NCBI GenBank assembly: GCA_036003885.1
Contig: DASYSA010000642.1
Span: forward strand, 1-40,812
Length of the DNA stretch: 40,812 nt
Direction: 5' to 3'
Source: Blastocatellia bacterium
Lineage (GTDB): Bacteria; Acidobacteriota; Blastocatellia; UBA7656
Shown: positions 1,253 to 36,189 of the stretch, in pieces
How the letters are laid out: each line of letters starts with the position of its first letter
Numbering within the stretch: the first letter of the stretch is position 1
The notes under the pieces: model-generated
Told to the model about the DNA's origin: nothing
Database searches by the model: none
Seen by the model: only the letters and a program-made list of their open reading frames with translations
Position numbers and translations under genes: made by a program

Positions 1253-1353
1253 CGTTGCTCGTTCCTCGTTGCTCGTTGCTCGTGAGGAGCCGAGAGTTGC
1301 CCTACACACAAAAACCGCAGAACGAGCAACGAGCAACGAGAAACGCGCAACGA
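1253..1353. repeat. Heptamer-array inverted repeat (hairpin module A), unit CGTTGCT; probable terminator for the upstream minus-strand gene
   Basis: The left arm (1253-1283) is CGTTGCT CGTTCCT CGTTGCT CGTTGCT CGT. The right arm (1321-1353) is AACGAGC AACGAGC AACGAGA AACGCGC AACGA, its reverse complement with a few mismatches. The loop is 37 nt. An A6 run at 1244-1249 gives a U6 tract 3 nt after the stem on the minus transcript. The module lies between the stop of the 1362-1895 gene and the purD start. Confidence 0.85.
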
Positions 1354-1361
1354 CTCTTTTA

Positions 1362-1895
1362 TTAGTCTTGAGGTGGGATTATTGGCTTGGACGGCTGCGA
1401 AACTGGTGCTTCCGAAGGGGGGTGATGCGTGGCGTTCACGTAGGCCTCGATTTCCAATCGGACTTCAGCATAAAGCCTGTCAACGGGTTTGTTCGCCTTG
1501 TCTCTCCACCCCTTGACGATTTCACCGTCGATCAGAAACTGGCCGTACTGAAAGTTCTGAGTGCGGAACAGGCTGTCTTCGAGCGCAAGGAAGACCAGCA
1601 TCTCCTGTTTCTCAATGTAGTTGTCTTCCGCGCATCGCACGTTCGCCCGCGCCAGCACGTTGACTTGCTTCAGGGTGAAGTCACCGTCAATCACATCAAG
1701 CGGCTTGAGGATCGCGAGCTGGCTGAACGCACCACGGTAGTTAGCCCGAACTGCTTTTTGGACCCTCACTCGCGCTATGAAGATTGAATTGCGTGTCAAT
1801 TCATCGATCGGCATTACGCGCAGGCAGTTGCGCGGCTGTGCGAGCCCCGTGAGTACCAGCAGGGGCATCGCAAGTATCAAGGCAAGCTTGTGCAT
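1362..1895 (-). CDS. Hypothetical secreted protein
   Basis: 177-aa ORF with an N-terminal signal-like segment (MHKLALILAMPLLVLTGLAQP). I recognise no family. Confidence 0.55.
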   Translation of the reverse strand: MHKLALILAMPLLVLTGLAQPRNCLRVMPIDELTRNSIFIARVRVQKAVRANYRGAFSQLAILKPLDVIDGDFTLKQVNVLARANVRCAEDNYIEKQEMLVFLALEDSLFRTQNFQYGQFLIDGEIVKGWRDKANKPVDRLYAEVRLEIEAYVNATHHPPSEAPVSQPSKPIIPPQD

Positions 1896-2003
1896 GTACG
1901 AAAACGGTCTCCTCTACAAGTTGATAATGCTACCACAGCGATTGGGGACCGCGAAAGAGTGTTTCCACCCATTGGTGAACGTCAGAAGGCTCTCGCAGTT
2001 CGA

Positions 2004-2591
2004 TTATTGTGCGCCCGAAGCTTCGTCGGTCGCAACAACCCGCGACCTTCGCAACCGCTGCCGATACAATGCCACTGCGAGGACGACCAGCAAAACCGCG
2101 CAAACCCCTATCAACACCTTGCCGCCGTGATCCTTCACAATTCGAAAGGCGTCGTCCCCAAACTCGATTGCAAGCCAGCCCTCGATCAGGAACCTGATCG
2201 CTCTTCCAATCAGTATGGCGAAGACAAACCGCACTGTCTTCAATTTGAAGACTCCAGCCCCGAGTACGAACGGCTTGAATGGAAAGGGAGGCGGAAGGAC
2301 GGCCGTGGTCATCACAGCCAGCATGTCGTAACGTCCAAGTAGATTCTGTATTCGCTCACGCTTTTGCGGGTTCACACGCCTCAGCGCGCTTTCACCCGCA
2401 CGGCGAGCTATCAGATACAGGATTGTGCAGCCGATTGTTGACCCCGCAGTCGCCGCAAGCGCATAGAGCGGCATCCGCGCTGGATTCACGGTGCTCAGCG
2501 TGATCATGATGAGATCAGGGCCGCTGGGCAGCGGAATCAACGCTGAGTCGAGCAGAGCGATTCCGAACAATCCGACCGCCCCAAAGGTCAT
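2004..2591 (-). CDS. DedA/YqaA (SNARE-associated) family membrane protein
   Basis: The sequence GLFGIALLDSALIPLPSGPDLIMI...LPPPFPFKPFVLGAGVFKL is typical of YqaA/DedA. The track ORF extends to 2837 and would overlap the upstream SpoIID-like gene, so I chose the ATG at 2591 (M83). The start remains uncertain. Confidence 0.65.
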   Translation of the reverse strand: MTFGAVGLFGIALLDSALIPLPSGPDLIMITLSTVNPARMPLYALAATAGSTIGCTILYLIARRAGESALRRVNPQKRERIQNLLGRYDMLAVMTTAVLPPPFPFKPFVLGAGVFKLKTVRFVFAILIGRAIRFLIEGWLAIEFGDDAFRIVKDHGGKVLIGVCAVLLVVLAVALYRQRLRRSRVVATDEASGAQ

Positions 2592-2737
2592 TAGCCATGC
2601 GCCCAGCTCGGCTAGGCTGCGCTTGATCCCTACCAGGGAGCCAAATGATAGCCCCGCCCGGCTTGAAGCCGAGCCGCCCGACTCGAAACCTTCGGCCAAG
2701 CCCGGCGCTTCTCCATTTCCAGTTCTCCGTCTGATTC

Positions 2738-3958
2738 TCACCCGACCCTCGTTACCTCGGTTTGCGGGTAATAGAAGCTGAGGATGTCGCGACAGCTTCG
2801 TCCGGCTACTGCCTGAGCTAACGCACCGGCCACACATAGTCCAACCTGACTGCCGAAACCGCGGCCTCTGAAGACGAATGCATTCCCCCGCCGCTGAACT
2901 GAAAAAGTTGGACTCAGAACAGTGTTCCAGCCGAGCCGCTGCCCGAGGCGGCGCCGAAAGTCGTCGGTAGGAAGTTCGACGCTACGGCCGCGGTCCCGGA
3001 TGCTGATAGAGCGAACGAGATCACTCGACCCTTCGGTTTGCGCGACAATCTCTGCCGCCTGAGAAAGCCTCCGCCCTGGCGCGGCCGATGCCAGCGCATC
3101 GAGCACCGACTGGGCCCGCGCCGTCCGCTGCCATGTGCAGTACCGTGAAGCCCGGCACCACTGGCACGCGATCCGCCGGTAGGGATAACCGCTTTGGACT
3201 CTGCCTCCCCACACCATCTCAGGCGTGGCTGAAAGGCCCCCGCAGGCAGCAGTATACTGGCCTTCGATCGCACGGCCTTGAAAGATAAGAACCTCACCTT
3301 CGGTCGACGACACAGCCATTGCGACAACCGGAGTCAACACTTCCGCTGAAAGATCTGCTTCTCCTCGGTACAGCTGGCAGTGAGTTGTGTCGCAAAAATC
3401 GAAGCCCTCGGCTCGATGCCGGCCGAGATGAGACTGCACAAATGTACGGACGACGATCGCAAGCGCCTTGATCGCCTCCGACTCGCGCCGCCCGGCAATC
3501 TCAGCTGCAACAATGGAGGCCACCGCCGACTCCATATCCGTCTCGAGAACGATCGAGAGCATCGCAGGCTCTAATCGGTTCTCCGCTCCAACGTACAGGC
3601 TACCGCGTACCGCGCGTTTCATTCGCGCAGGCAGGTTCAATTCGAGGCCGCCTGAACCATCGGGTTCCACTTTAGCCTCGCCCGCTGTTGCAGTTGCTTT
3701 GATGCGCCCGTAAGCATCGACCAGGACCACGTTGAGACCCGCACCCGATTTCCGAACTCGAATCGTCTGGCCCGGCTCAACAACTACTTCCGAGAGCCTG
3801 CCGGCATTCAGAATTGCGGTATGACCCGGGGAGGGCTGCACATTGAGCACATCGGGCTTGAATAAGCTGAAGAGTCCTATTCGCAAGGGTCGGCTAGCCG
3901 AATCGACGCCCGTCGCGGCGAAGGAGAGCAACGCTATGGTGGCAAGAGCGACCGGCAT
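2738..3958 (-). CDS. SpoIID/LytB domain-containing protein (peptidoglycan remodelling)
   Basis: Signal peptide (MPVALATIALLSFAATG) plus the signature FDFCDTTHCQLYRG and a CGG...PEMVWGG segment, both characteristic of the SpoIID/LytB domain. Confidence 0.8.
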   Translation of the reverse strand: MPVALATIALLSFAATGVDSASRPLRIGLFSLFKPDVLNVQPSPGHTAILNAGRLSEVVVEPGQTIRVRKSGAGLNVVLVDAYGRIKATATAGEAKVEPDGSGGLELNLPARMKRAVRGSLYVGAENRLEPAMLSIVLETDMESAVASIVAAEIAGRRESEAIKALAIVVRTFVQSHLGRHRAEGFDFCDTTHCQLYRGEADLSAEVLTPVVAMAVSSTEGEVLIFQGRAIEGQYTAACGGLSATPEMVWGGRVQSGYPYRRIACQWCRASRYCTWQRTARAQSVLDALASAAPGRRLSQAAEIVAQTEGSSDLVRSISIRDRGRSVELPTDDFRRRLGQRLGWNTVLSPTFSVQRRGNAFVFRGRGFGSQVGLCVAGALAQAVAGRSCRDILSFYYPQTEVTRVG

Positions 3959-4174
3959 GAGTCATGAATATGAACGATGAATCGGGAATGCACAATAACG
4001 GCACGACGCCGCGTCCCTGAAGGGGCGCGATTCGCACTATGCTCTGGCTTGAAGGCCGGGCGACGCAGTAGACTAACATTGACGCGCGACAACGACGAGG
4101 GACGACGTGTGCTGTTGTCTGACCTCGTCAGCAAAGGAGATCGCCGCTTCGTTCACACAAGGAAAAGCGCCACT

Positions 4175-5467
4175 ATGACTACAACTCCCTCGACCTCTTT
4201 CGCAGGCAGCCGGGTTGGGACTGATGAAGCTGACGATCTGCAGGCTCGCTACCACAGCGTAAGGGAGGCGACCGTAGAATTATGTAAGCCGCTGTCACCC
4301 GAAGACTGCGTGGTTCAGTCGATGCCAAACTGCAGCCCAGCGAAATGGCATCTGGCGCACACGAGCTGGTTTTTTGAAACCTTCATTCTCGAGCGCAGCA
4401 TACCGGACTATATCTCCTTCAACTCGCAGTTCCGAATGATGTTCAACTCCTACTATCAGTCAGTGGGCGAGCAGTACCCGCGTCCGTCGCGCGGGTTGTT
4501 GTCGCGCCCGACTCTGAACGAGGTGCTCGAATACCGAAAGCACGTCGATCGCTGCATGCTCTCGGTTCTTGAAGCCGAGGGCACGCGGGCCACGACGGCG
4601 AGTGTAATCGAGTTGGGCCTCCAGCACGAGCAACAGCATCAAGAGTTGATCCTGACCGATATCAAACACATGCTTTCGTTCAATCCGCTGCGTCCCTCGT
4701 ACGCAAGCGTTGTTGGGCCGGCGGGGGAGTCTCAACCGCTGACTTGGAGTCGCTATGATGGAGGCCTCCGGTGGATCGGCCACGAAGGGGACTCCTTTTC
4801 CTTCGATAACGAGGAGCCGCGCCATCGCGTGTTCATCGAGCCCTTTGAGCTTGCGTCGCGTCCGGTGACTAACGGCGAGTACGTGGCTTTCATAGAGGCT
4901 GACGGGTATGAGCGCCCTGATCTCTGGCTCTCAGATGGCTGGTACGCGGTTAGCGATCAGCACTGGCGCGCGCCCCTTTATTGGGAGTTTCTGGATGGCA
5001 CGTGGTTCCTGTTCACGTTGTCGGGACTGCGCGAGCTTCGCCCCGAGGAACCTGTTTGCCACGTTAGCTTTTACGAGGCGGATGCGTTTGCCCGTTGGGC
5101 GGGGGCGCGTCTGCCCACTGAAGCCGAATGGGAATCGGTGGCCGGCGAGGAGTCGATCGCCGGTAACTTTGTGGAGAAGGGCCTCCTGCATCCGGCTCCT
5201 GGAGCCGATCACAGGGAAGGCCCGGCTCAGATGTTCGGAGACGTCTGGGAGTGGACTCAGAGTCCATATATCCCTTATCCCGGCTTCAACCCGCCGGAGG
5301 GAGCGCTGGGTGAATACAACGGCAAGTTCATGTGCCACCAGATAGTGCTCAAGGGGGGCTCCTGCGCTACGCCACAGTCCCACATTCGCGCGACCTACCG
5401 TAACTTTCTCCCGCCGGACGCGCGCTGGCAATTCAGCGGAATAAGGCTCGCTCGCGATGCGAAATAG
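4175..5467 (+). CDS. egtB: EgtB-like sulfoxide synthase (DinB_2 plus FGE-sulfatase domains), ergothioneine-type
   Basis: WHLAHTSWFFETF and LQHEQQHQELI (DinB-like iron site) are followed by an FGE-sulfatase-like C-terminal half (VSFYEADAFARWAGARLPTEAEWE, GDVWEWT). The start is set at the ATG at 4175, which is preceded by AAGGAAAAG. The track start at 3977 adds a basic, non-homologous extension. Confidence 0.8.
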   Translation: MTTTPSTSFAGSRVGTDEADDLQARYHSVREATVELCKPLSPEDCVVQSMPNCSPAKWHLAHTSWFFETFILERSIPDYISFNSQFRMMFNSYYQSVGEQYPRPSRGLLSRPTLNEVLEYRKHVDRCMLSVLEAEGTRATTASVIELGLQHEQQHQELILTDIKHMLSFNPLRPSYASVVGPAGESQPLTWSRYDGGLRWIGHEGDSFSFDNEEPRHRVFIEPFELASRPVTNGEYVAFIEADGYERPDLWLSDGWYAVSDQHWRAPLYWEFLDGTWFLFTLSGLRELRPEEPVCHVSFYEADAFARWAGARLPTEAEWESVAGEESIAGNFVEKGLLHPAPGADHREGPAQMFGDVWEWTQSPYIPYPGFNPPEGALGEYNGKFMCHQIVLKGGSCATPQSHIRATYRNFLPPDARWQFSGIRLARDAK

Positions 5468-5518
5468 AGGTTTCCTGGGTACGCACGCTTCCAGCGTGCC
5501 CCGATTCTGTTTGCTCAC

Positions 5519-6406: not shown

Positions 6407-6486
6407 CTTTATCCTCCACTCTCATCCCGCACCGGGGACTCGACCGTCGTCGAGCGCTAGCATACCGCCTGCCGCGACTCATGCGC

Positions 6487-6528
6487 CAGTTGTCAGTTGT
6501 CGCCTGTCCATGGTCAACTGTAGCAACG
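6487..6528. repeat. Short degenerate 7-nt phased array with an internal inverted element
   Basis: The units are CAGTTGT CAGTTGT CGCCTGT CCATGGT CAACTGT AGCAACG. Five of the six end in GT, and CAGTTG (6494-6499) is complementary to CAACTG (6515-6520). The array lies in the divergent spacer between the MscS gene and the debranching-enzyme gene. Confidence 0.3.
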
Positions 6529-6559
6529 TGGACCGAGGACCACAGAGTGCCCCAACATC

Positions 6560-8533: not shown

Positions 8534-8536
8534 TCG

Positions 8537-8866: not shown

Positions 8867-9034
8867 GGTTTGCGTATCAGGATGAACAACCCGACGCCTA
8901 TAAGCTGACGACGAGCGAGAAAGCGCGAAATTGAAGGCATAAGAATTCCTTTCTGTCTGTCGAAGACGTGCGTGCGCCGTTGCATCCGATCGTCAGGTCC
9001 GGATTCTCCCACCGGCGATATACACCCAACCGTC

Positions 9035-9472: not shown

Positions 9473-9542
9473 CTGGATGGCTCCCGAATAAGATGATCAG
9501 CGAGAGCTTAATAGATTCAACTGTGAAACTCAAAAGAATGAT

Positions 9543-9633
9543 GCGTGATTCGTGATGCGTGATTCGTGATTCGTGATGCGTGATGCGTGATTCGCAATTT
9601 GTCACGGATCACGGATCACGAATCACGCATCAC
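9543..9633. repeat. Heptamer-array inverted repeat (hairpin module B), units GCGTGAT/TCGTGAT
   Basis: The left arm (9543-9594) has seven full units plus TCG. The right arm (9603-9633) is CACGGAT CACGGAT CACGAAT CACGCAT CAC. My manual pairing of 9566-9594 with 9605-9633 gives about 29 positions with about 4 mismatches or wobbles. About 3 left-arm units remain unpaired. The module lies in a divergent spacer, with the thioesterase start at 9472 and the kinase start at 9784. Confidence 0.85.
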
Positions 9634-9634
9634 T

Positions 9635-9662
9635 TTGCCCGGCATCCGGTCGTGTGTATAAT
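9635..9662 (+). promoter_or_regulatory. Candidate sigma70-type promoter for the kinase gene
   Basis: TTGCCC (9635-9640), a 16-nt spacer, then TATAAT (9657-9662). It begins immediately after the right arm of hairpin B. A 7-bp hairpin TGACCTC/GAGGTCA (9743-9765) lies in the presumed 5' UTR. Confidence 0.3.
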
Positions 9663-13805: not shown

Positions 13806-13888
13806 ACGTCCCCCGGTTGCCCCCACCGACCCAAGTGAACTGAAGATGCTACCCCGAACGAGCTGAACTTGCAACAACGCTCTCGTAC

Positions 13889-13961
13889 GGGCGGGCCTCC
13901 GTGCCCGCTCCTGATCGGTGCCGTGGTAATCACTCAGGTGGCAGGCAACGGAGGCCCGCCC
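13889..13961. repeat. Perfect 14-bp GC-rich inverted repeat in the infB-rbfA spacer
   Basis: GGGCGGGCCTCCGT (13889-13902) and ACGGAGGCCCGCCC (13948-13961) are exact reverse complements separated by 45 nt. The spacer contains a nested 5-bp helix CCTGA/TCAGG. No U-tract follows on the transcribed (minus) strand. Confidence 0.8.
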
Positions 13962-13979
13962 CTAAACAAGTCGGCAGCA

Positions 13980-16637
13980 TTACAGCGAAGTGGGCGCAAC
14001 CTCTTCGGTTGTGTATGCCTCGATGACATCACCGACCTTCACATCCTGAAACCGCTCCAGCGAGATGCCGCATTCGAACCCCTGTCTCACCTCGCTCACA
14101 TCGTCTTTGAAGCGCTTCAAGGTCTCTATGCGCCCCTCGTAAACAACCACGCTATCGCGCAGCAATCTCACAGTTGTGCGGCGAATTGTGCCGTCGATCA
14201 CGTAGCAGCCCGCTACCTGTCCCACCTTTGGAACCTTGAAGACCTGACGCACCTCAATATGACCTGCGATGACTTCGCGTTTGGTAGCATCAAGAAGTCC
14301 AAGCATCGCCGCCCGGATCTCTTCCTCGACCTTATAGATTACGGTATGCAGCCGAATATCGACGTCCTCTATTTCAGCGATCTCGCGCGCTCTCGTTTGA
14401 GGACGAACGTTGAAACCGATGATGACCGCCACGCGGTTCATGTCTTTTGAAGAGGCCGCAGCCAGCATCACATCCGATTCTGTTATGGCGCCGACGCCTG
14501 ACCTGATTATGCGAATCTTGACCCGTTCGGTAGACAGCTTGTTAAGGCCGTCGCGGACCGCTTCAACCGAACCCTGAACGTCACCCTTGAGGATGACAAG
14601 CAATTCCTTGATCTGGCTCTTGTCGGCAAAGAGCTGTTCGAGCCCTCGAGCTGAAGTTCGCGCGATGGCTGCCAGGCGCGCCTGCATCTGCCGCTGGCTC
14701 GCGATGTGTTGCGCCTGATTTGCCTCTTGCACAACCTGCAGTTGATCGCCCGCGAGCGGCACGCCCTGCAGACCCAGGACTTCAACCGGCGTCGAGGGAC
14801 CCGCGCGCTCAACACTCTCACCCCGATCATCGAACATGGCCCGGACTCGTCCGAACACCTGACCCGCAATGAACGGGTCGCCTATCTTGAGGGTCCCCTG
14901 CTGCACGAGCACGGTGCCCACTGCACCTCGGCCTTTATCGAGCTTGGCTTCCAGTACAACACCCGAAGCCAGGCGATCCGGGTTGCCCTTGAGCTCGAGC
15001 ACGTCGGTGGTCAGGATGATCATCTCCAGGAGGGAGTCGAGATTCTCCTGCTTCTTCGCGGACACTTCCACCATGACCGTGTCGCCGCCCCATTGGTCCC
15101 AGAGCAGTCCGCGGTCGGCGAGCCCCTGCTTCACCCGATCAGGTTGCGCTTCAGGCTTATCGATCTTGTTGATTGCGACGATCATCGGCACTTCGGCGGC
15201 TCGCGCGTGATCGATAGCCTCGAGAGTTTGTGGCATCACGCCGTCATCGGCCGCAACAACCAGCACCACAACGTCGGTGACACGTGCTCCTCTTGCTCTC
15301 ATCATCGTGAATGCTTCGTGACCTGGAGTGTCGAGGAAGACGATTCGACGTTTGCGCTCGGGATCGTCCGGATCGGACACGTCCACCGAGTAGGCACCTA
15401 TGTGCTGGGTGATGCCGCCCGCCTCGCCTTCCGCCACTCGCGTCTTACGAATGGCATCCAGCAACGAAGTCTTTCCGTGATCGACGTGGCCCATGACGGT
15501 AACAACCGGCGCGCGAGGCATTGAGCCTTCTTCGCCCGATTCGATGATCTTCTCTTCCTCGGTTTCGGTGATCATCTCCTCAAACGGGAGGAAGTTGATG
15601 TTGTAGCCGAACTCTTTGCCTATCTCCTTTGCGATATCCTGGTTCAGCGTCTGGTTGATCGTCGCCATCACGCCGCGTTGGAGCAGCATCTGCACAACAT
15701 CTTTGGCTTTGACTTCGAGCTTCTCGGAGAAGTCCTTAAGCGTGGTGCCTTCGATGAGCTTGATCGGTCTGAGTTCGGTAAACACCGGTCTGGTTCTTGG
15801 CTGTACCATGGTGCCGGGGCCGCGCATGTGGCGCGGCACGTCGACATGCTTGCCTTCCTCAGGTCCGCCCTCGCCATGTCCGCGCTTTCCTCTGCGAGTG
15901 CGCTTGCGTGGACGGCCGGTGTCCTGGGGTACGTAGGTGGTTTGCAGCTTGCGAGCCGGCGTATCCGGTACTGTTACGGCCTCGGCGCCGGAGCGAGCCG
16001 ATGCAACTCGTCCCGACCCAGCCGGACTTCCAATTGCGGCCTGAGGCTGCATGGGTCGACCGGGTTGCGGTCTGAGGACCCGAACCTGTGTGCGCGGGCG
16101 CTGTATTGGCGACGGCACGGAAATGCCTGGAACAGATGTAATCGGTTCGCGTGAAGAATCATCGCCTTCAGGCGCATTGATGGCCGGCTCAGGCGCAACG
16201 TCGCTTGATGGTTGTGGCGCGGCGGATACGCCCTGCGGCTGCGGCGGCGGAGCGGCGGCAGCCGGCTTCAATATGCGAACCTTTGGCCTGGCGACTTCCG
16301 GCTCTTGCGGCGCAGACGCAGCCGGCCGCTCGGCAGGCTGGGGTGCGGCGGACTCGGCCTCAACCTCTGTATGCTCGAGCTCGGGCCGGATGTCGACAGA
16401 GGTTTCGGCGGCCTCGGCACGCTTAATGACCTTGACGAGACGAGGGCCAACGGACGGCACCACCTTCTTGGGGAAGTATTTGGTGCGGATTCGCTCGGCC
16501 ACTTCCATCGGAACGGAGTTGGAGGGCACGTTCACATCTATACCCTCGCGCCGCGCATCGTCGATCACGCGCTTATTGTCCAGCTTCAACTCCTTAGCCA
16601 GGTCGTAGATTCTTATCTTTTGGTGTTGCACTGCCAT
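13980..16637 (-). CDS. infB: Translation initiation factor IF-2
   Basis: 885 aa with a Pro/Ala-rich N-terminal region. The GTPase core reads [29 protein letters not shown]. The C-terminal domain is conserved. Confidence 0.95.
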
Positions 16638-23220: not shown

Positions 23221-23327
23221 CAATGAACTGGATTGCAAAAGACAACACCCTTGGCATAGACAGTGGCATTTTCTGTGCGCCGTCTTCTGTTGACTCAGTA
23301 CCGGTTGGGACGGAGATGAGCAACAGA

Positions 23328-23362
23328 GAACGTAAAACGCGAAACGCGAAACGCGAAACGAT
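23328..23362. repeat. 35-nt A/C-rich heptamer array directly upstream of the ATG (module C-5')
   Basis: GAACGTA AAACGCG AAACGCG AAACGCG AAACGAT, then C and the ATG at 23364. It is complementary to the G/T-rich array that starts at 24252, after the same gene. Confidence 0.85.
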
Positions 23363-23363
23363 C

Positions 23364-24245
23364 ATGTGGCTGTGGCGCGCGACCCTCCTGGCTGCAGCGA
23401 TCGGTTCGCTCCTGGTGTCCCTTTCCGCCGCAACTCCTCCCGTTTCGGAACCTGCGACGTTGAAGGTAACGACGGGTCAGGCCGGCTCCGTAGTCTTCAT
23501 CAATAACGTCCGGCACGGAACCACGAATGAAGAGAGTGCCCTTGAACTGAAGATCAAAGCGGGCTCGTATTCGGTGAGGGTGAGAACAGTCGGCTTCAGC
23601 GATTGGAAGGGATCGGTTGTCCTTACATCGGGCGCCACACGAACTCTAAAAGTTACCCAGCAGCCAACTTCGGATGAAGCGTTGTTGCATTATCAAAAGG
23701 CGGATGATCTCCGAGACAAGTTGAAACACAAGGACGCAGTCAAGGAATACGAGCAAGCGATAACGTTGCGCCCGGTCTTTCCTGAAGCCCGCGTGGCGCT
23801 GACACGAAGCCTCATTCCTCTGCAGCGATTCCAGGAAGCCGAAGCCCAACTCCAACGCGCGATGAAAGACAATCGGGGACCTTTCCCGGAGGCGCACACA
23901 GTACTCGCGAACCTGCGCCGCCAGCAGGGTCTCACGGACGAAGCCATTGCCGAATATAGAAAGGCGCTGCGACTGGCGCGAGGTGTTTCGGCAGAGGCGC
24001 ACATAGGTCTCGCCATCGCGCTCAATGAGACAGACGAAATAGACGCGGCGGTCAGGGAATATCGCATCGGAATCGCTCAGGACATGGAGACAGAGCCGAT
24101 CCTCTACTACCAACTTGGCAGCATTCTCGAGAAAGCGGAGCGCAAGAAGGAAGCGGTTGAGGCCTATCAGAACTATTTGAGACTCGACCCCAAGGGAGAA
24201 TTGGCTTCGGCGGTAGAGTCGATGATAGAGATGCTGAAACGGTAA
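23364..24245 (+). CDS. PEGA domain plus TPR repeat protein (membrane-anchored or secreted)
   Basis: MWLWRATLLAAAIGSLLVSLSAA forms a hydrophobic N-terminus. A PEGA-like segment follows (GSVVFINNVRHGTT...GSYSVRVRTVGFSDWKGSVVL), then several TPR units. An in-frame ATG at 23316 would add MSNRERKTRNAKRETI, which would be translated from the heptamer array, so the start is ambiguous. Confidence 0.75.
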   Translation: MWLWRATLLAAAIGSLLVSLSAATPPVSEPATLKVTTGQAGSVVFINNVRHGTTNEESALELKIKAGSYSVRVRTVGFSDWKGSVVLTSGATRTLKVTQQPTSDEALLHYQKADDLRDKLKHKDAVKEYEQAITLRPVFPEARVALTRSLIPLQRFQEAEAQLQRAMKDNRGPFPEAHTVLANLRRQQGLTDEAIAEYRKALRLARGVSAEAHIGLAIALNETDEIDAAVREYRIGIAQDMETEPILYYQLGSILEKAERKKEAVEAYQNYLRLDPKGELASAVESMIEMLKR

Positions 24246-24251
24246 AAACCA

Positions 24252-24363
24252 GTTTCGAGTTTTGCGTTTCGAGTTTCGCGTTTCTGGTTTCGGGTTCCGC
24301 ATTTCCGCGTTTTCATGGTTCATTTGTCCTTTCTGGTTTTCTTGTCTCTGGTTTTGGTTTAGA
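24252..24363. repeat. Long G/T-rich heptamer array (about 16 units, GTTTCGN decaying to GTTTTCT-like)
   Basis: GTTTCGA GTTTTGC GTTTCGA GTTTCGC GTTTCTG GTTTCGG GTTCCGC ATTTCCG CGTTTTC, continuing to GGTTTTG GTTTAGA. It begins 7 nt after the stop at 24245. GTTTCGCGTTTC (24273-24284) is the exact complement of GAAACGCGAAAC in the 23328-23362 array. GTTTCGGGTT is complementary to the 24378-24412 array. Confidence 0.85.
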
Positions 24364-24377
24364 CTAAGGGACCCTAA

Positions 24378-24412
24378 GAACGCGAAACCCGAAACCCGAA
24401 ACTTAAAACGAT
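24378..24412. repeat. 35-nt A/C-rich heptamer array directly upstream of the ATG (module C-3' arm)
   Basis: GAACGCG AAACCCG AAACCCG AAACTTA AAACGAT, then CCC and the ATG at 24416. It has the same length, the same first unit type and the same last unit as the array at 23328-23362. Confidence 0.85.
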
Positions 24413-24415
24413 CCC

Positions 24416-25588
24416 ATGCCTAAACAGATAATCTCCCAAAAAGCTGAGCAGTTCACTGAATCGGTCATTCGAGAGATGACCCGGCAGGCGAATCTCCACG
24501 GAGCGATCAACCTCTCACAGGGCTTTCCGGATTTCGCGGCCCCCGAGGAGATAAAACTCGCGGCTTGCGACGCCATAATGGCCGACGTGAATCAGTATGC
24601 GATCACCTGGGGTGCCAAGAGGTTCCGCGACGCAATCGCCAGAAAATCTTCGTGGTATCTTGGCCTCGAGGTCGATCCCGAACGCGAGATAACGGTCACT
24701 TGCGGGTCAACCGAAGCAATGATCGCAGCGATGATGGCCATCGTTAACCCCGGCGACGAAGTTATTGTATTCGAGCCCTTCTACGAGAACTATGGCCCTG
24801 ACGCGATTCTGTCGGGAGCCACTCCCCGATATGTGACCCTTCACGCCCCTGAATGGAACTTCGATCCCGATGAGCTGGCCGCTGCCTTCAATGACAACAC
24901 CAAGGCTATCATCATCAATACGCCGAACAATCCCACTGGAAAGGTATTCAACCGCGAAGAGCTGGAGATCATCGCATCTCTGTGCCGGAAGTGGAATGCT
25001 ATTGCGATAACCGACGAGATCTACGAGCACATTCTCTTTAATGGCAAGAAGCACATTGCGCTGGCCGGCCTGGATGGAATGCGCGACCGCACGATCACGA
25101 TCAACGGTCTTTCGAAGACCTACAGCGTTACCGGCTGGCGAGTCGGCTACACCATCGCGCCGCCCGAGATCACCCAGGCAATTCGCAAAGTTCACGACTT
25201 CCTCACGGTAGGCGCAGCAGCTCCGCTGCAAGAGGCCGGCGTTCATGCCCTCAACCTGCCTGAGTCGTACTACGAGAAACTCCAATCGGATTACACGGCC
25301 AGGCGCGATCGGATACTTCAAGTGCTGAAGAGCGTTGGCTTCGTTTGTTTCGACCCGGACGGCGCCTACTACGTAATGACCGACATAAGCGCGTTCGGCT
25401 ACAAAGACGACCTCGAGTTCTCACAGTTTCTCGTCAAAGAGATTGGCGTGGCGGTCGTACCGGGCAGCAGCTTCTACCACGAGCCTCAACTCGGGCGCAG
25501 TCAGGTGCGATTCACCTTCTGCAAGAAGGACGAGACTCTTGCCGCGGCCGAAGAGCGTCTCCAGCGGCTAAAACCGCTCGCCCGCTAA
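24416..25588 (+). CDS. PLP-dependent aminotransferase, class I/II (YbdL / kynurenine-aminotransferase-like)
   Basis: NLSQGFPDF, NTPNNPTGKVF, and SKTYSVTGWRVGY (PLP lysine context). 390 aa. Confidence 0.85.
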   Translation: MPKQIISQKAEQFTESVIREMTRQANLHGAINLSQGFPDFAAPEEIKLAACDAIMADVNQYAITWGAKRFRDAIARKSSWYLGLEVDPEREITVTCGSTEAMIAAMMAIVNPGDEVIVFEPFYENYGPDAILSGATPRYVTLHAPEWNFDPDELAAAFNDNTKAIIINTPNNPTGKVFNREELEIIASLCRKWNAIAITDEIYEHILFNGKKHIALAGLDGMRDRTITINGLSKTYSVTGWRVGYTIAPPEITQAIRKVHDFLTVGAAAPLQEAGVHALNLPESYYEKLQSDYTARRDRILQVLKSVGFVCFDPDGAYYVMTDISAFGYKDDLEFSQFLVKEIGVAVVPGSSFYHEPQLGRSQVRFTFCKKDETLAAAEERLQRLKPLAR

Positions 25589-28047: not shown

Positions 28048-28059
28048 GAGGCGTTTGCA

Positions 28060-28517: not shown

Positions 28518-28546
28518 GCTTCTCAGGTTGAGACGGGATTCAGGCG

Positions 28547-29215: not shown

Positions 29216-29218
29216 CCG

Positions 29219-31102: not shown

Positions 31103-31104
31103 AT

Positions 31105-31497
31105 ATGGAAGCAGCAGAGAAAAGCGGAGCCGCAGTCGCGGAGACCGACGGCCCGGAGACGGGAAAGAAGGCCTACAGGGTCACGTTCATTTTGCCCGAC
31201 GGCAAGACGGAGACGGTGGAATACGAGCCCGGTGTTACACCGTACCACGAGCACGGTCTGGAGGGATCGCTTCTGGATGTTGCGCTGAACTTCAGTATCC
31301 CTCTCGAACACGCGTGTGGGGGAAACTGCGCCTGCACGACATGTCACGTCATAGTGAAGCAGGGCGAAGAGAACCTCTCCGAGATGCAAGATAACGAAGA
31401 GGATCGCCTCTATTTGGCTGACGGGCTGACCCTGCACTCGCGGTTGGGTTGTCAGGCGGTCGTCAAGGGTGACGTGACGGTTGAAATAGCAGACTAG
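31105..31497 (+). CDS. fdx: [2Fe-2S] ferredoxin (ISC-type Fdx)
   Basis: CGGNCACTTCHV...LGCQ, an adrenodoxin-type Cys pattern. There is an N-terminal extension of about 20 aa. Confidence 0.9.
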   Translation: MEAAEKSGAAVAETDGPETGKKAYRVTFILPDGKTETVEYEPGVTPYHEHGLEGSLLDVALNFSIPLEHACGGNCACTTCHVIVKQGEENLSEMQDNEEDRLYLADGLTLHSRLGCQAVVKGDVTVEIAD

Positions 31498-31522
31498 CTC
31501 AATGTGACGCGGAGAAAAACTC

Positions 31523-31738
31523 ATGCGGGAATTGAAGTGGACTGACACAGAAGAGATTGCTATAAAACTCCTTGAGACACATCCGGACATCGATCCGCTC
31601 ACCGTGCGCTTCACCGACCTGCACCGGTACGTTATGGAGCTCGAGGGCTTCAGCGACGATTCAAGAGAATCGAATGAAAAGAAGCTGGAAGCCATCCAAA
31701 TGGCCTGGCACGAAGAGTGGACAGAAGAGAATGAATAG
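31523..31738 (+). CDS. iscX: Fe-S assembly protein IscX (YfhJ)
   Basis: MRELKWTDTEEIAIKLLETHPDIDPLTVRFTDLHRYVMELEGFSDD is a characteristic IscX sequence. It is the last gene of the isc operon. Confidence 0.8.
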   Translation: MRELKWTDTEEIAIKLLETHPDIDPLTVRFTDLHRYVMELEGFSDDSRESNEKKLEAIQMAWHEEWTEENE

Positions 31739-31876
31739 TCATTTGTCATTTGTCATTTGTCATTTGTCATTGGTCATTGGTCACTTGTCATTTGTCATTG
31801 GCTATTCGCGCGGGGCAGATGACCAAGGACAAGTGACGAGTGACAAGTGACAAATGACAAATGACAACCGACCAAT
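31738..31876. repeat. Heptamer-array inverted repeat (hairpin module D), units GTCATTT/GTCATTG versus GACAAGT/GACAAAT
   Basis: The left arm has 9 units (31738-31800) and starts with the G of the iscX TAG stop. The loop is 20 nt (31801-31820). The right arm has 8 units (31821-31876), and its last unit, GACCAAT, overlaps the ATG at 31875. In the best register the arms are complementary at most positions (every GAC/GTC triplet and about 23 of 32 variable positions, by my count). Confidence 0.9.
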
Positions 31877-33080
31877 GAAGGTCTATCTCGACAACAGCGC
31901 TACAACTGCCGTCGCTCCGGAAGTCATCGAGGCGATGCTGCCATTTCTGTCCGCAGACTTCGGCAACGCGCAGTCGGTCCACTCTTTTGGACAGGGCGCC
32001 AAAGCCGCTGTTGAGAAGGGGCGCCGCCAGGTTGCCTCCCTCCTGAATGCCGCCCCAGCCGAGATAGTCTTCGTCTCCGGAGGCACTGAAGCCGACAATC
32101 TCGCACTGCGCGGCATTTGCAATGCCCACATGAAGTATGGCCGGCACATCATCACCACGAGCATCGAGCATCCCGCCGTGCTTGCGACCTGCGAAGAGCT
32201 TGAACGCAGCGGCTTCCGCGTTACGTATCTGCCGATTTCGTCGAGGGGGCTCGTGAACGTCAATGACCTCCGCGCAGCAATCGCAGCAGACACAATCCTG
32301 ATCTCGGTAATGCATGCCAACAATGAGACCGGAACCGTGCAACCGATCGAAAAGATAGCCCACGTTGTAGCTTCAGCCCGTGCACAAGGAAGCAGGCACT
32401 TGCATTTTCATACCGACGCTGTGCAGTCGACCGGCAAGATATCTATCGATGTTAAGCGACTCGGCGTCGATCTGCTTTCGCTCTCCGGGCACAAGATTCA
32501 TGCCCCTAAGGGCGTCGGGGCGCTCTTCGTCCGAAAGGGCGTCAGGCTTGCCAGGATCTCTTTTGGGGGACACCAGGAGCGGGACCGCAGACCCGGCACG
32601 GAGAATGTTCCTGGCATAGTAGCCCTGGGACGGGCTGCCGAATACGCTTCCGCCAACTCAGACAGCGGCCCTGCGCGAATGCGTGAGCTTAGAGACTATC
32701 TCGAACAGCAGATTATCGCGCGATGCGAGGGCGTGCAGGTGAACGGCGACGTTGAGCGGCGGGTGCCCAACATTTCGAACCTGAGCTTTCGGGGGGTGGA
32801 TGGAGAGAGCCTGCTCATCGCGCTCGACTTAAGAGGGATCGCCGTATCGACCGGATCGGCGTGCGCTTCAGGGTCGCTTGAACCGAGTCATGTGCTCACG
32901 GCGCTTGGACTCAGTCGCCAGGAAGTTCGAGGCAGTCTGCGCTTCAGCCTGAGCGTATATACCACACGCGACGAGATCGATTATGCAGTTTCGGCGCTGG
33001 AGGAAACCCTCGAGCGGCTCCGCGGTATGCTGCCATCCGAAGGCCCGGAGACCAGGGAAAGCGTGGTCTCTGATCTGTAG
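31875..33080 (+). CDS. Second cysteine desulfurase (NifS/IscS-like class V aminotransferase)
   Basis: MKVYLDNSATT, SGHKIHAPKGVGALFVRKG, the active-site loop STGSACASGSLEPSHVL. The start is set at the ATG at 31875. The track start at 31854 lies inside the heptamer array. Confidence 0.9.
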   Translation: MKVYLDNSATTAVAPEVIEAMLPFLSADFGNAQSVHSFGQGAKAAVEKGRRQVASLLNAAPAEIVFVSGGTEADNLALRGICNAHMKYGRHIITTSIEHPAVLATCEELERSGFRVTYLPISSRGLVNVNDLRAAIAADTILISVMHANNETGTVQPIEKIAHVVASARAQGSRHLHFHTDAVQSTGKISIDVKRLGVDLLSLSGHKIHAPKGVGALFVRKGVRLARISFGGHQERDRRPGTENVPGIVALGRAAEYASANSDSGPARMRELRDYLEQQIIARCEGVQVNGDVERRVPNISNLSFRGVDGESLLIALDLRGIAVSTGSACASGSLEPSHVLTALGLSRQEVRGSLRFSLSVYTTRDEIDYAVSALEETLERLRGMLPSEGPETRESVVSDL

Positions 33081-33121
33081 TCACTTGTCACTTGTCACTT
33101 GTCACTTGTCACTTGTCACTG
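33080..33121. repeat. Solitary G/T-rich heptamer array (module E), unit GTCACTT x5 plus GTCACTG
   Basis: It starts with the G of the TAG stop at 33078-33080 and ends 5 nt before the ATG at 33127. It is complementary to the GACAAGT units of the right arm of module D, on the other side of the desulfurase gene. Confidence 0.9.
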
Positions 33122-33126
33122 AAGCA

Positions 33127-33486
33127 ATGTACACCCGACAGGTAGCAGATCATATTGCCAATCCCCGCAACGTGGGCGAGCTTCGAGACCCTTCGGGCAT
33201 TGGAGACGTGACGAACGCTGTCTGCATGGACAGAATCCGGCTCACCGTTCGCATCGAAGGCGATAGGCTTGTGGACGCGAAGGTGAAGGCGGACGGGTGT
33301 CCCCCGACCATCGCGGCGGCCTCGGCTTTGACCGAGTTGATCATCGGCCGATCGCTTGTTGAGATCCGGTCTTTCGACAGAACAACTGTGACCGAGGCGC
33401 TCGGCCGTCTTCCCGCCGCAAAGATGCACTGCGCGGTGTTGGCGATCGACGCGTTGCGCGCATCGATCGAAAGCGCGGTACGATGA
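33127..33486 (+). CDS. IscU/NifU-N-like Fe-S scaffold paralog
   Basis: ADHIANPRNVGEL, VCMD (Cys-x-Asp), DGCPPTIAAAS, KMHCAVLAIDAL. The three Cys, the Asp and the His are retained. The track start at 32983 reads through the heptamer array and overlaps the upstream gene. Confidence 0.8.
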   Translation: MYTRQVADHIANPRNVGELRDPSGIGDVTNAVCMDRIRLTVRIEGDRLVDAKVKADGCPPTIAAASALTELIIGRSLVEIRSFDRTTVTEALGRLPAAKMHCAVLAIDALRASIESAVR

Positions 33487-33528
33487 GTTCGACACACCGC
33501 CCGCAGTCCGTCTGCAAGTGGAGGCGTG

Positions 33529-34221
33529 ATGTTTGAGAGATATACAGAGAAAGCGCGGCGAGTGATCTTCTTCGCTCGATACGAAGCAAGTCAGTTCGGA
33601 GCGCTGGCGATTGAAGCCGAACACATTCTTTTGGGGATATTGCGAGAAGACAAGATACTGGTGCAGAGTCTCTTCCCCAACGCTCACGCGGCGCTTGACT
33701 CGATCCGCCGCGAGATTGAGTCACGCACGATAACGAAAGACAAGATTCACGCTTCGGTCGATCTGCCGTTGTCGCCCGGCGCCAAGCAGGCTATGACGTA
33801 TGCCGCTGACGAGAGAGAAAAGTTTCACAACCGCCACATTGGTACTGAACATCTGATGCTTGGACTGATCAGGGACAAGAAATCACTCGCGAGCGAGCTT
33901 CTACGCGCTCGCGGAGTCACGGCCGAAAAGGTGGTCGATTTCATCACCAACCTGGCGGGTGTTCATAACGAGGAGAAGTTCGACGCGATCTCGCGCGACG
34001 ACGCTCAGACCGCTGAACGACTCTCAAGCCCGCTGTGGCTGCTGGTGGACCTGCTCGCGCGGAAGGGACTCCTTACGCGGGAGGAGTTCATGGGAGAACT
34101 CCTCGGCAAGGACGCTTCTATTAATATCCTAAAAGCGTTCAATCGGCTGCTCGAGCTGCTCGTGCGCAAGGGCATCATCAGCGACGATGAGAGGCGAGAG
34201 ATATCAGCTGGGCAGAGCTGA
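33529..34221 (+). CDS. Clp N-terminal (Clp_N repeat) domain-containing protein
   Basis: MFERYTEKARRVIFFARYEASQFGALAIEAEHILLGILRE and a second repeat (AKQAMTYAADEREKFHNRHIGTEHLMLGLIRD) match the ClpA/B/C N-domain. No AAA+ module follows. Confidence 0.8.
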   Translation: MFERYTEKARRVIFFARYEASQFGALAIEAEHILLGILREDKILVQSLFPNAHAALDSIRREIESRTITKDKIHASVDLPLSPGAKQAMTYAADEREKFHNRHIGTEHLMLGLIRDKKSLASELLRARGVTAEKVVDFITNLAGVHNEEKFDAISRDDAQTAERLSSPLWLLVDLLARKGLLTREEFMGELLGKDASINILKAFNRLLELLVRKGIISDDERREISAGQS

Positions 34222-34905
34222 GCCGCACGACGGGCAGAATATTTCACCGGGCTCCACCGCCGCGCCGCAATCAGTGCACGACGGAGTTTCTATCACTTCC
34301 ACATCCGGCGTATCCGGCTCGTTAAGGAAGGAACCGCACCCGATACAGAACAGATCCTGGGGGTTCGAGCGACTGTTGCAGACGGGACAGACTATCAGAC
34401 CGCTGTCAGACTTTGGAATCCCTGGATCTATGAGGGGACCGGTAATTTTTAATTGGTCGTCCATCTTCACCTTCCGACCTGTGCTTTCAGGAGGCCTACC
34501 GACTGGCTGAGGCTCGGCTATCAACTCAGGTACCGGCACAGCTCTCAGTTCAGGTTCTGGCACGGGTATGAGCTCGGCTCTCAGTTCAGGTCCTGGCTCG
34601 GGTATCAGCTCAGCTTTCAATTCAGGTTCTGGCTCGGGTTCCGGCTCCTCTTCTTCAGGCAGTATGTCCTCTGCGCGAAGAATCACTGAGCCGGGAGTGT
34701 CGGCCATAACGTGCCCGGTAAAAGCAGCGGCCGGCGCGACCATAACCCGGGCCATCGGAGGCCTGGGCGGTGGCTTCGGCGGTGGCTCAGGCTGAACCAG
34801 AGCCGCTCGAAGGCGCTCCGCTTCTTCCTGTTGCTCCTCCGGAGTTAGAGCGTTGAAAGCAGCAAGGTCTGTATAGAGGTCTATCTCCATATCGAGTGGC
34901 CGCAC
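34204..34905 (-). CDS. Double zinc-ribbon protein with a Pro/Glu-rich repeat region
   Basis: The C-terminus has CPVCNSRS...FCIGCGSFL and CTDCGAAV...FCPSCGSAL. The middle has tandem PELKAELIPEPG / PELRAELIPVPE / PELRAVPVPE repeats. GTG start at 34905 (alternative ATG at 34890). It overlaps the 3' end of the Clp_N gene by 18 nt in convergent orientation. Confidence 0.6.
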   Translation of the reverse strand: MRPLDMEIDLYTDLAAFNALTPEEQQEEAERLRAALVQPEPPPKPPPRPPMARVMVAPAAAFTGHVMADTPGSVILRAEDILPEEEEPEPEPEPELKAELIPEPGPELRAELIPVPEPELRAVPVPELIAEPQPVGRPPESTGRKVKMDDQLKITGPLIDPGIPKSDSGLIVCPVCNSRSNPQDLFCIGCGSFLNEPDTPDVEVIETPSCTDCGAAVEPGEIFCPSCGSALPS

Positions 34906-35100
34906 CCCTCAAGGCTGAGGCGACCCTGGCAATGTCTTTGACGAACAGACTGTTACAAGACTTCTCTCAATGGGGATCAGATGGAGGCAGAGGGCTTCAT
35001 TCTACAACACGCCTTTCTGCATTTCTATACTAATTATTGGCGGGATTGGTTGGTCGGCGTTTCGGGACGAGTGATACTATCTCGGTTCCTGGTGTAACTT

Positions 35101-36114
35101 ATGCCAACAGAAGGTCAAATAATCTCTCGAATCAAGGCGCTCGTGCGGGACAGCCGCCGAGTGACCGTCGGCATAGGGGACGATGCCGCCGTTTTAAGCC
35201 TCGAAGAGGGCTCCGATTTGATCGCCTGCTGCGATTTGCTGGTTGAGGGCGTTCACTTTCGGGCCGGGTGGTCACCGCCGAAGTTGTTAGGTCACAAAGC
35301 GCTTGCGGTTACGTTGAGCGATGTGGCCGCAATGGGCGCCGTCGCACGCTTCGCCATGGTCAGCGTAGCCTTCCCGCCCTCAACCAGTTCCGAGTTTGTC
35401 GACGATCTCGTCAGCGGCATTGTCGAGCTGGCCGACCGGTCCGGAGTGACGATCATCGGCGGTGACACGTCCGGCTCTCCAGGCCCGCTGTTCCTCGACA
35501 CCAGCGTGCTTGGCGAATGCGCGCGAGGTCGAGCGGTCAGACGCAGCGGCGCGACGGCTGGAGACACCATCTACGTGACAGGCCACCTCGGGGCTTCGGC
35601 ACTCGGACTGCACCTGCTTGAAGCAGGGCATAGATTGGAAGATGAAATCTCTGATGATGTGAGCAGGGCGTGCCGGCGGGCATTGCTGAAGCACCTCGCA
35701 CCTGAGCCGAGGTTGAAGCTCGGTCAGGCGATCGGTGAAGCCGGGCTTGCAACGGCGATGATAGACATCAGCGACGGGCTGAGCACGGATCTGTGCCACG
35801 TACTTGAAGAAAGCGGCTGCGGCGCTATCATTCACGCCACCTCGCTCCCGACGGCAGAATGTGCGCTTTCACTCTCCCCGACCGATTCAAGCATCGACTT
35901 ACTGAGTCTTGCATTGCACGGAGGAGAAGAATACGAATTGCTTTTTACTTCTCGACCAGAAAGCGAAGGAGATTTACTTGAGCTTTCGAACTCCATGGGC
36001 GTACGAATCACTGCTATCGGCGAGACAGTCGTCGGATCGGGTCTGCAGCTGGAGCATAACAAGCTGACCGAACCAGTTCTTCCGGCGGGCTACGAACACG
36101 GGGGAAGGATCTAG
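35101..36114 (+). CDS. thiL: Thiamine-monophosphate kinase
   Basis: GIGDDAAVL, DLLVEGVHF, ALAVTLSDVAAMGA, GGDTS, DISDGL. These are the AIR-synthase-related fold motifs of ThiL. Confidence 0.9.
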   Translation: MPTEGQIISRIKALVRDSRRVTVGIGDDAAVLSLEEGSDLIACCDLLVEGVHFRAGWSPPKLLGHKALAVTLSDVAAMGAVARFAMVSVAFPPSTSSEFVDDLVSGIVELADRSGVTIIGGDTSGSPGPLFLDTSVLGECARGRAVRRSGATAGDTIYVTGHLGASALGLHLLEAGHRLEDEISDDVSRACRRALLKHLAPEPRLKLGQAIGEAGLATAMIDISDGLSTDLCHVLEESGCGAIIHATSLPTAECALSLSPTDSSIDLLSLALHGGEEYELLFTSRPESEGDLLELSNSMGVRITAIGETVVGSGLQLEHNKLTEPVLPAGYEHGGRI

Positions 36115-36189
36115 GATCTAGGATCTAGGATCCGAGAGGTCCTAGATCCCAGATCCTAAATCCTAAATCCTAGATCCTAGATCCTACCT
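36107..36189. repeat. Heptamer-array inverted repeat (hairpin module F), unit GGATCTA / CCTAGAT; candidate bidirectional terminator
   Basis: The left arm (36107-36134) is GGATCTA x3 plus GGATCCG. The right arm (36141-36189) is CCTAGAT CCCAGAT CCTAAAT CCTAAAT CCTAGAT CCTAGAT CCTACCT. Manual pairing of 36107-36132 with 36145-36170 gives 26 positions with 3 mismatches. The thiL TAG (36112-36114) and the TAG of the convergent gene (complement of 36184-36186) both lie inside the arrays. Confidence 0.9.

Follow-up and report, generated by a model that had tools for sequence, protein, structure and literature searches.

The DNA analysed here is a 40,812-nt stretch, hereafter the window, from an uncultured soil member of the Blastocatellia (Acidobacteriota). 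Its intergenic spacers hold tandem arrays of 7-nt units, many of which are accompanied by a second array of reverse-complementary units, giving modules built as arm, loop and inverted arm. These modules are embedded among ordinary chromosomal genes. A gene map based on codon usage gives the context of each module. The window has roughly 34 genes, and a Pfam scan that took in ~18 of them identified purD, an FGE-sulfatase-like protein, a glycogen debranching enzyme, a Ser/Thr kinase with TPR repeats, infB, nusA, an SLT transglycosylase, an aminotransferase, the series hscB-hscA-fdx-iscX-nifS-nifU and an AIR-synthase-related protein. The gene order of this series is unlike that of the E. coli isc operon. 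In a homologue search, relatives of the window NifS are annotated as Blastocatellia or Acidobacteriota, and the best species-representative genome by this protein is a Blastocatellia metagenome-assembled genome (MAG) at 92% identity. This bears out the view of an earlier note on the same DNA that its gene content is not cyanobacterial. Neither of two start choices gives a NifS product with an exact match on record.

Tandem Repeats Finder (TRF), run across the whole window, reports 12 rows of period-7 arrays with scores of 41-103, and among them are all of the strong arrays to which the earlier note had drawn attention. In a period-blind test, which counted exact self-match runs of at least 10 bases at periods 1-30, 14 runs were found at period 7 and three at period 14 (the identical arrays), with one each at periods 9 and 11 and zero at all remaining periods. 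Heptamer arrays make up 482 nt, or ~12-14% of the ~3.5 kb of intergenic DNA in the window. Their units are CGTTGCT, GTGATKC, AAACGCG, GTCAYTT and GGATCTA.

Two weaker traces that had been suggested as further members fared less well. One, at 6487-6501, consists of 2.1 copies of CAGTTGT followed by degenerate units and forms no hairpin (z = 0.08), making its membership doubtful. The other, placed at 40571-40640, is not a period-7 array. The repeat found there is a 35-nt direct repeat of 1.9 copies (40591-40657), in the spacer upstream of a gene that starts at 40750 and has a strong GGAGGAGG Shine-Dalgarno sequence. The strong arrays themselves are real features of the genome. An independent contig from the Joint Genome Institute (JGI), L002, shows the same arrays as the window, and multi-Mb long-read MAG contigs of relatives also bear period-7 arrays. 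The agreement of independent assemblies, together with the presence of arrays in long-read relatives, excludes an assembly artefact.

Five loci in the window are modules of the arm, loop and inverted-arm type, with fold z-scores of -3 to -12 when both strands are computed against 200 dinucleotide shuffles. Folding energies of the paired modules range from -49 to -79 kcal/mol (z = -5 to -12, both strands), apart from the degenerate one at 24246-24415 with z = -3, and the predicted helices are near-perfect and 26-55 bp long. The architecture is as first described, with arms of unequal copy number that could pair in several registers. The arms had been thought to lie up to 37 nt apart; most pairs in the window do fall at 7-37 nt, but the pair at 24252/24379 encloses a loop of 66 nt. 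Structure is not a general property of spacers here, as most window spacers without an array are unstructured, mostly with z between -2 and +1. The sole strongly structured spacer that lacks a 7-nt array is at 13878-13979 on the minus strand, just past the infB stop at 13980, where a long GC-rich hairpin without heptad periodicity folds at -65.5 kcal/mol (z = -7.2).

The first module (module 1, 1252-1353) consists of 4.6 copies of TCGTTGC (1252-1283), a 37-nt loop and 4.7 copies of AACGAGC (1321-1353). It lies between co-directional minus-strand genes, 8 nt after the stop of the gene at 1362-1895 and 44 nt before the purD start at 1207, and its folds have energies of -67/-59 kcal/mol, both strands giving z = -8.5. 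With an A6 run on one side and a T-rich run on the other, it is the sole module that resembles a bidirectional intrinsic terminator. Module 2 (9539-9633) stands between two divergent genes, one for a thioesterase (start 9472, minus strand) and one for the Ser/Thr kinase-TPR protein (start 9742, plus strand). Its arms comprise 7.6 copies of GTGATGC/GTGATTC (9539-9594) and 4.6 copies of TCACGGA/TCACGAA (9602-9633), with z = -7.1 and -7.2 on the two strands. A sigma-70-like promoter match, TTGCCC-16-TATAAT (10/12 positions; 9635-9662, plus strand), starts 2 nt past this module and lies 80 nt upstream of the kinase gene.

A single array of 3.7 AAACGCG units (23335-23360) sits at the beginning of a TPR/PEGA gene. 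The open reading frame (ORF) at 23223 offers two in-frame ATGs, 23316 and 23364, and alignments with homologues begin only near residue 55. With a start at 23364 the array would be 5' leader; with one at 23316 it would supply the codons for RKTRNAKRET. Its unit is the reverse complement of that of the array at 24252, at the opposite end of the same gene. There, module 4 (24252-24402) has 8.6 degenerate copies of GTTTCGC/GTTTCGA (24252-24312), the 66-nt loop mentioned above and 3.4 copies of GAAACCC (24379-24402). It lies between co-directional genes, 6 nt past the stop at 24245 and 13 nt short of the aminotransferase ATG at 24416; the stretch 24246-24415 folds with z = -3.0. The junctions between array and start codon are alike at these neighbouring genes, reading GAAACGATC-ATG at 23328-23366 and AAAACGATCCC-ATG at 24378-24418. 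A gene bracketed in this way by oppositely oriented arrays of one unit family hints that arrays can spread locally.

The most stable module lies in the iscX-nifS spacer. Module 5 (31738-31878), between co-directional genes, combines 8.9 copies of GTCATTT (31738-31799), a 24-nt loop and 6.4 copies of AAGTGAC/AAATGAC (31824-31867, with degenerate units to 31878). It opens on the final base of the iscX stop codon and ends 7 nt before the nifS ATG at 31875. The fold, at -79 kcal/mol (z = -11.7), closes 2 nt from that ATG. The longest-ORF start of nifS, at 31854, falls inside the array. The start that is conserved is the ATG at 31875, which lacks a Shine-Dalgarno-like sequence and, as judged from the nifS starts in L003-L037, stands at the 3' foot of the hairpin in most species. 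The next spacer, between the co-directional nifS and nifU, is filled by a single array of 5.9 GTCACTT units (33080-33120). This array begins with the final base of the nifS stop codon, stops 6 nt short of the nifU ATG at 33127 and is predicted to be unstructured (z = +2.2).

Module 7 (36106-36186) fills a convergent spacer, with 3.9 copies of AGGATCT (36106-36132), a 7-nt loop and 6.7 copies of TCCTAGA/TCCTAAA (36140-36186); its folds score z = -5.0 and -6.7 on the two strands. Both stop codons lie inside the arms, that of the AIR-synthase-related gene at 36112-36114 and that of an SGL-propeller gene at 36184-36186 (minus strand).

The arrays are not peculiar to this contig. We compared the window with the near-identical contig L002, with two congeneric contigs, L001 and L003, of 85-91% DNA identity to it, and with 80 genome loci of 21 kb, centred on nifS, from Blastocatellia and other Acidobacteriota. 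A wider set of relatives comprised 82 loci and 1.2 Mb in total. In this 1.2 Mb, 126 exact runs were found at period 7 against 1-22 at the other periods from 4 to 12, and TRF reported 147 arrays of period 7, 64 of period 12 and smaller numbers elsewhere. As in the window, period 7 therefore exceeds every other period, and the observation withstands the refuting condition named in the earlier note, a lack of any such excess. The arrays are patchy among relatives, with at least one in 40 of 81 loci. An out-group control of 518 kb around nifS from other phyla, drawn from a metagenome protein scan that yielded no close relatives (best identity 71%), gave 15 period-7 runs, eight of them in one contig of 42% GC, and 0-10 runs at other periods. 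The excess of period 7 is therefore weakly general, and it has been strongly amplified in the present lineage.

Pairing is the rule among these arrays. When an inverted partner is defined as a reverse-complement array no more than 150 nt away, 114 of the 147 arrays (~78%) have one. A separate direct copy accompanies only two of the 147, and the counts in two controls are 4 and 21. The distribution of copy number per arm has its peak at 4 units, or ~30 nt. The 147 arrays comprise more than 60 canonical units, and a unit is shared (with at most one mismatch) by 15% of module pairs within a genome and by 5% between genomes. The earlier claim that the unit differs at each locus thus holds in so far as the family is defined by its period and its units are diverse, but some units are reused, as in the two spacers either side of nifS, which both carry the GTCAYTT family. 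The most enriched tetramer in the units is CTGA/TCAG. Of 94 modules in the window and L001-L082, 21 contain it, where 6.3 would be expected (z = 5.8, with shared ancestry ignored). This recalls the TAACTGA unit of Beggiatoaceae, cyanobacteria and Bacteroidetes and the MTYCTGA unit of Geobacter; AGTGA- and AGTC-containing units also recur between genomes. No polarity of stop triplets was detected between the 5' and 3' arms (15 against 14).

Arrays of another style flank nifS in a metagenome contig that does not look acidobacterial (L119 3975-6428, QQTW01002436.1; GC 42%, NifS 51% identical). Here, arrays of up to 18 units stand just upstream and downstream of the gene, but they are direct, with differing units and no inverted pairs, in the manner of the short tandemly repeated repetitive (STRR) sequences of cyanobacteria.

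Modules are tightly fitted to the spaces between genes. Across the window and relatives, none of 97 lies deep inside a gene call. They occupy 56 co-directional, 10 convergent and 11 divergent spacers, against a background of 762, 145 and 160 adjacent gene pairs, and this match indicates that there is no preference for gene ends as such. In co-directional spacers, the median distance is 1 nt between the upstream stop codon and the beginning of the module, and 5.5 nt between its end and the next start, the latter distance being based on longest-ORF gene calls that were checked only for nifS, nifU and a few others.

Orthologous spacers show that the arrays change in place, and in a comparison that the earlier note had called for, unit numbers differ between relatives. 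The window and L002 are distinguished by two substitutions and one 7-nt indel in 7.9 kb, with 99.9% identity elsewhere. In this one pair of strains, the indel is a single unit of the nifS-nifU array, present in 5.9 copies in the window and 4.9 in L002. A metagenome scan for this array between its exact flanks returned 0 matches. In L001 and L003 the same three spacers again hold modules, whose unit numbers differ from those of the window and whose units differ in part. Between iscX and nifS, GTCATTT/AAATGAC of the window corresponds to GTCCGTT/AACGGAC in L003, both arms having changed together, and L001 is intermediate. The nifS-nifU spacer carries two arms in L001 and L003 and only the 5' arm in the window, which implies that single arrays can arise from pairs through loss of an arm. 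In the convergent spacer between the AIR-synthase-related and SGL-propeller genes, the longer arm lies on opposite sides in the window and L001. A repeat of a different kind is found inside the minus-strand DZR/zinc-ribbon gene at 34204-34905, where a 36-nt tandem repeat of 3.2 copies (34525-34639) would encode 12-residue repeats; L001 and L002 have it too.

Heptamer arrays stand upstream of nifS in 28 of 83 loci and downstream in 22 of 83, with unrelated units, against a background of ~9% of spacers. In the clade in which iscX precedes nifS, the spacer between them folds with z <= -3 in ~22 of 30 species, including some in which the heptad periodicity has decayed or the hairpin is of other sequence. 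The foot of the helix usually lies within 0-5 nt of the nifS ATG on one side and 0-3 nt of the iscX stop on the other, and in the species examined no Shine-Dalgarno-like sequence occurs outside the stem. The persistence of this hairpin is the strongest argument that pairing itself is maintained. Three species have iscX-nifS spacers of ~188-280 nt (L013, L015 and L026) with very long hairpins that lack heptad periodicity and fold at -93 to -145 kcal/mol (z = -5 to -9). Here the heptad module may have been invaded, or its place taken, by another palindromic sequence.

We conclude that the arrays very probably represent heptameric simple sequence repeat (SSR) hairpin modules that evolve in place. 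Our proposal is that they are palindromic heptanucleotide microsatellites, evolved by slippage, that act as RNA processing or coupling elements, a statement which, taken whole, we consider to have about an even chance of being correct. According to this proposal, 7-nt replication slippage would expand and contract each arm independently. The arms would stay complementary through selection for pairing, through the occasional templating of one arm on the other, or through the two combined. When transcribed, a module would fold into a near-perfect helix of 26-60 bp, and this helix would excise the spacer in three dimensions, placing the flanking stop and start codons side by side. Long double-stranded helices are substrates of double-strand-specific RNase III. 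The modules might thereby serve as elements for processing, stability and translational coupling between cistrons or in untranslated regions (UTRs), with stem length tuned by slippage.

A precedent for function at the RNA level is provided by the Haemophilus hmw hairpin (PMC12721329), and we put forward such a role for the modules, whether in processing, stability or coupling, as a tentative suggestion with somewhat poorer than even prospects. More speculatively still, the modules might be lineage-wide 'evolvable' RNA structures that are under selection and not mutational debris. At operon junctions such as iscX-nifS, a stem would then have been maintained throughout the divergence of Blastocatellia while slippage repeatedly rewrites both arms. 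It would act by juxtaposing stop and start codons, for termination-reinitiation coupling at a start that lacks a Shine-Dalgarno sequence, as an RNase III site, or as both, and stem length would be a heritable tuning knob for housekeeping operons. We regard this extended version as unlikely.

Several observations weigh against our proposal, and some of them would suit an explanation in which the modules are a neutral or selfish by-product. In this alternative, a lineage-specific property of replication or repair causes frequent 7-nt slippage, arrays expand in any intergenic DNA that is free of constraint, self-complementary pairs persist as a hairpin is the least disruptive insertion, and there is no positive function; we consider it a serious possibility, if one with less than an even chance. 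Modules occur in all spacer types at background proportions, as a context-blind mutational process would give. Folding energy shows no strand asymmetry (13 against 16 modules, p = 0.7), although near-perfect stems give this comparison low power, and with sense and antisense equally stable, the G-U signature that would betray selection on the transcribed strand is absent. Module 2 may not be part of a transcript at all, and instead stand upstream of a promoter. Arrays end at coding boundaries, but neutral expansion bounded by purifying selection would also fill spacers up to that point, and the distances to downstream starts depend on longest-ORF calls. The order of variant units is mirrored between the arms significantly in only one of 39 informative modules (L006, a mirror of 6+3 units), so that general arm-to-arm templating is not supported. 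Finally, we infer the function of the modules entirely from sequence. The neutral alternative also accommodates the lack of T-tracts after modules, the unequal arms and their occasional loss (window against L001 and L003), the polymorphic unit number and the patchy presence among loci, and slippage has already been proposed for such repeats (PMC4679880 and PMC4692102, as they cite Mrazek 2007). What pure slippage leaves unexplained is the inverted partner of 78% of arrays. Nor does it explain the joint change of unit in both arms between species, which must stem from selection on pairing, from rare templating events, or from both. The recurrence of the iscX-nifS hairpin in ~22 of 30 species despite complete sequence turnover, and a copy number that peaks at 4 units where a monotonic decay might be expected, also speak against it.

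The remaining explanations meet with greater difficulties. Rho-independent, possibly bidirectional, terminators built from repeats would account for module 1, with its upstream A6, downstream T-rich run and position 8 nt after a stop, for module 7 in its convergent spacer, and for the closeness of modules to stop codons generally. Yet, on the strand downstream of a stop, the 10 nt past the TRF boundaries of two-arm modules hold 3.3 T on average, against 3.8 on the other strand (p = 0.2), and terminator-like sites in the window are no commoner than in shuffles. Moreover, 11 modules lie in divergent spacers and several stand inside operons right before a start codon, as in iscX-nifS and nifS-nifU. 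Taken together, the modules are not canonical intrinsic terminators with a hairpin and U-tract. Termination of this kind is improbable as a general explanation, and the suspicion voiced in the earlier note that simple termination would be insufficient is upheld by the background-like spacer types and the missing T-tracts. Slightly less probable again are arrays of binding sites for a protein that reads 7-nt periodicity in single-stranded nucleic acid or DNA, such as a cold-shock-domain protein (one per heptamer), a HutP-like reader of UAG-N4 or an iteron-binding regulator. A strictly constant period with variable sequence, unit families reused within a genome and the unstructured single-arm array before nifU would fit such a protein, and a link between cold-shock proteins and heptamers has been raised before (PMC4679880). 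The CTGA/TCAG enrichment, with its echo of TAACTGA (PMC4679880) and MTYCTGA (PMC2700814), points the same way, but its statistics ignore shared ancestry. The units are also very diverse, with more than 60 canonical units among 147 arrays; most arrays would be locked in very stable duplexes, and no candidate is tied to them in the window. Least probable by far, and in our view hardly credible, is that the modules are copies of a mobile element, whether of the repetitive extragenic palindromic (REP) type, including bacterial interspersed mosaic elements (BIMEs), or of the miniature inverted-repeat transposable element (MITE) type. In favour of this are their intergenic position, palindromic form and multiple copies, and the reuse of some unit families inside one genome. 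However, neither loops nor flanks are related between modules built on one unit, units differ between loci, and orthologous spacers change gradually in place and not by presence or absence. The whole window has no match at Rfam gathering thresholds, and no transposase was found among the ~18 of ~34 genes scanned with Pfam.

The question of why 7-nt repeats accumulate between bacterial genes has stood since the STRR sequences of cyanobacteria were described. To our knowledge, no function has been established for heptamer repeats outside Haemophilus. The present lineage is a useful case, as its arrays are dense, diverse in sequence and almost always paired into hairpins. In particular, the iscX-nifS junction, where structure is kept over dozens of species while the sequence turns over, offers a concrete place to distinguish processing or coupling from tolerated slippage. 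There are practical implications too. The arrays are a probable cause of breaks in short-read assemblies of Acidobacteriota and of distorted start-codon calls; nifS itself was called 7 codons too long, its ORF extending into the array. Among close NifS relatives (P0003-P0008), many metagenomic contigs are only 1.4-3.4 kb long, barely exceeding the length of the gene, as expected if short-read assemblies break at the flanking arrays.

Comparable repeats are known from several groups of bacteria. In the survey of Mrazek et al. 2007, as related in PMC4679880 and PMC4692102, many bacterial genomes have heptanucleotides as their most abundant class of long simple sequence repeats (LSSRs), and these are over-represented in many phyla. 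Burkholderia, cyanobacteria, actinobacteria and Xanthomonas supply the 10 genomes with the most repeats of 5-11 nt, and the excess of heptamers is attributed to polymerase slippage. Our arrays resemble these LSSRs in the over-representation of period 7, their intergenic position, a length beyond chance and polymorphism of unit number. Hairpin pairing was not the focus of that survey, at least as it is summarised, and the papers we draw on make no mention of Acidobacteria.

The STRR sequences of cyanobacteria are likewise intergenic tandem heptamers with several unit families per genome. There, a few unit families extend genome-wide, whereas here the units are diverse and only modestly reused, and pairing is the rule. 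REP and BIME elements share the form of intergenic palindromes, often in operon spacers, and stabilise upstream mRNA. They differ in having a family consensus, in not being tandem 7-mers and in being mobilised by REP-associated tyrosine transposases (RAYTs); the modules have neither a shared consensus nor any sign of mobility. CRISPR arrays can be ruled out, since the units are 7 nt long and contiguous, in contrast to repeats of 23-50 nt with unique spacers of about the same length. On both counts the earlier note was right: the modules are neither CRISPR arrays nor, given their unrelated loops and flanks, copies of one REP- or MITE-like consensus.

The same note knew of no described equivalent outside cyanobacteria, and here it was mistaken, as Xanthomonas (PMC4692102), Beggiatoaceae and Bacteroidetes (PMC4679880), Geobacter (PMC2700814) and Haemophilus (PMC12721329) all provide one. 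In Beggiatoaceae, cyanobacteria and Bacteroidetes, TAACTGA arrays lie upstream of start codons and have been tied, speculatively, to heptamer-binding cold-shock proteins (PMC4679880), while Geobacter has paired MTYCTGA heptanucleotide sites on opposite strands (PMC2700814). These systems share with the modules intergenic arrays of 2-6 units near start codons, a CTGA core and, in Geobacter, pairs on opposite strands. In contrast, they rely on one conserved unit per genome, and Maribeggiatoa has 169 direct sets to one inverted (PMC4679880). For Haemophilus influenzae, function has been worked out. The (ATCTTTC)n repeat of hmw is transcribed in the 5' UTR and forms a long RNA hairpin that RNase III cleaves, and both hmw expression and change in repeat number depend on this hairpin, such that repeat number tunes expression (PMC12721329). 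A heptamer SSR is thus the arm of a long hairpin in both cases. With hmw only one locus is concerned, a contingency locus upstream of an adhesin gene, and its right arm is G-rich and not a repeat; the modules, known from sequence alone with hairpins predicted in silico, occupy many loci beside housekeeping genes and have arrays for both arms.

The fullest parallel is in Xanthomonas, where GGGAATC forms ~185 arrays per genome, with 70-75 inverted pairs and mostly 4 units (Rehm et al. 2015, PMC4692102). These arrays adjoin or overlap stop codons, and their positions are kept between species while their length varies (PMC4692102). The modules described here correspond to them in being intergenic 7-nt arrays, in that ~75% form convergent inverted pairs (70 pairs among 186 arrays in Xanthomonas, 114 of 147 arrays here), in a modal number of ~4 units and in closeness to stop codons. 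They also correspond in that position and type (single or pair) are kept between species, with length and sequence varying. The difference lies in the units. In Xanthomonas a single G-rich unit that can form G-quadruplexes predominates, whereas many units are in use here, mostly without G-tracts, and this diversity rules out a G-quadruplex or single-motif explanation for the present lineage. In the literature searched, no link was found between heptamer repeats and Blastocatellia, Chloracidobacterium or Pyrinomonas, and apparently this kind of repeat has not been reported for the phylum Acidobacteriota. The class itself is already known, and is best described in Xanthomonas; Acidobacteriota is a new host phylum for it.

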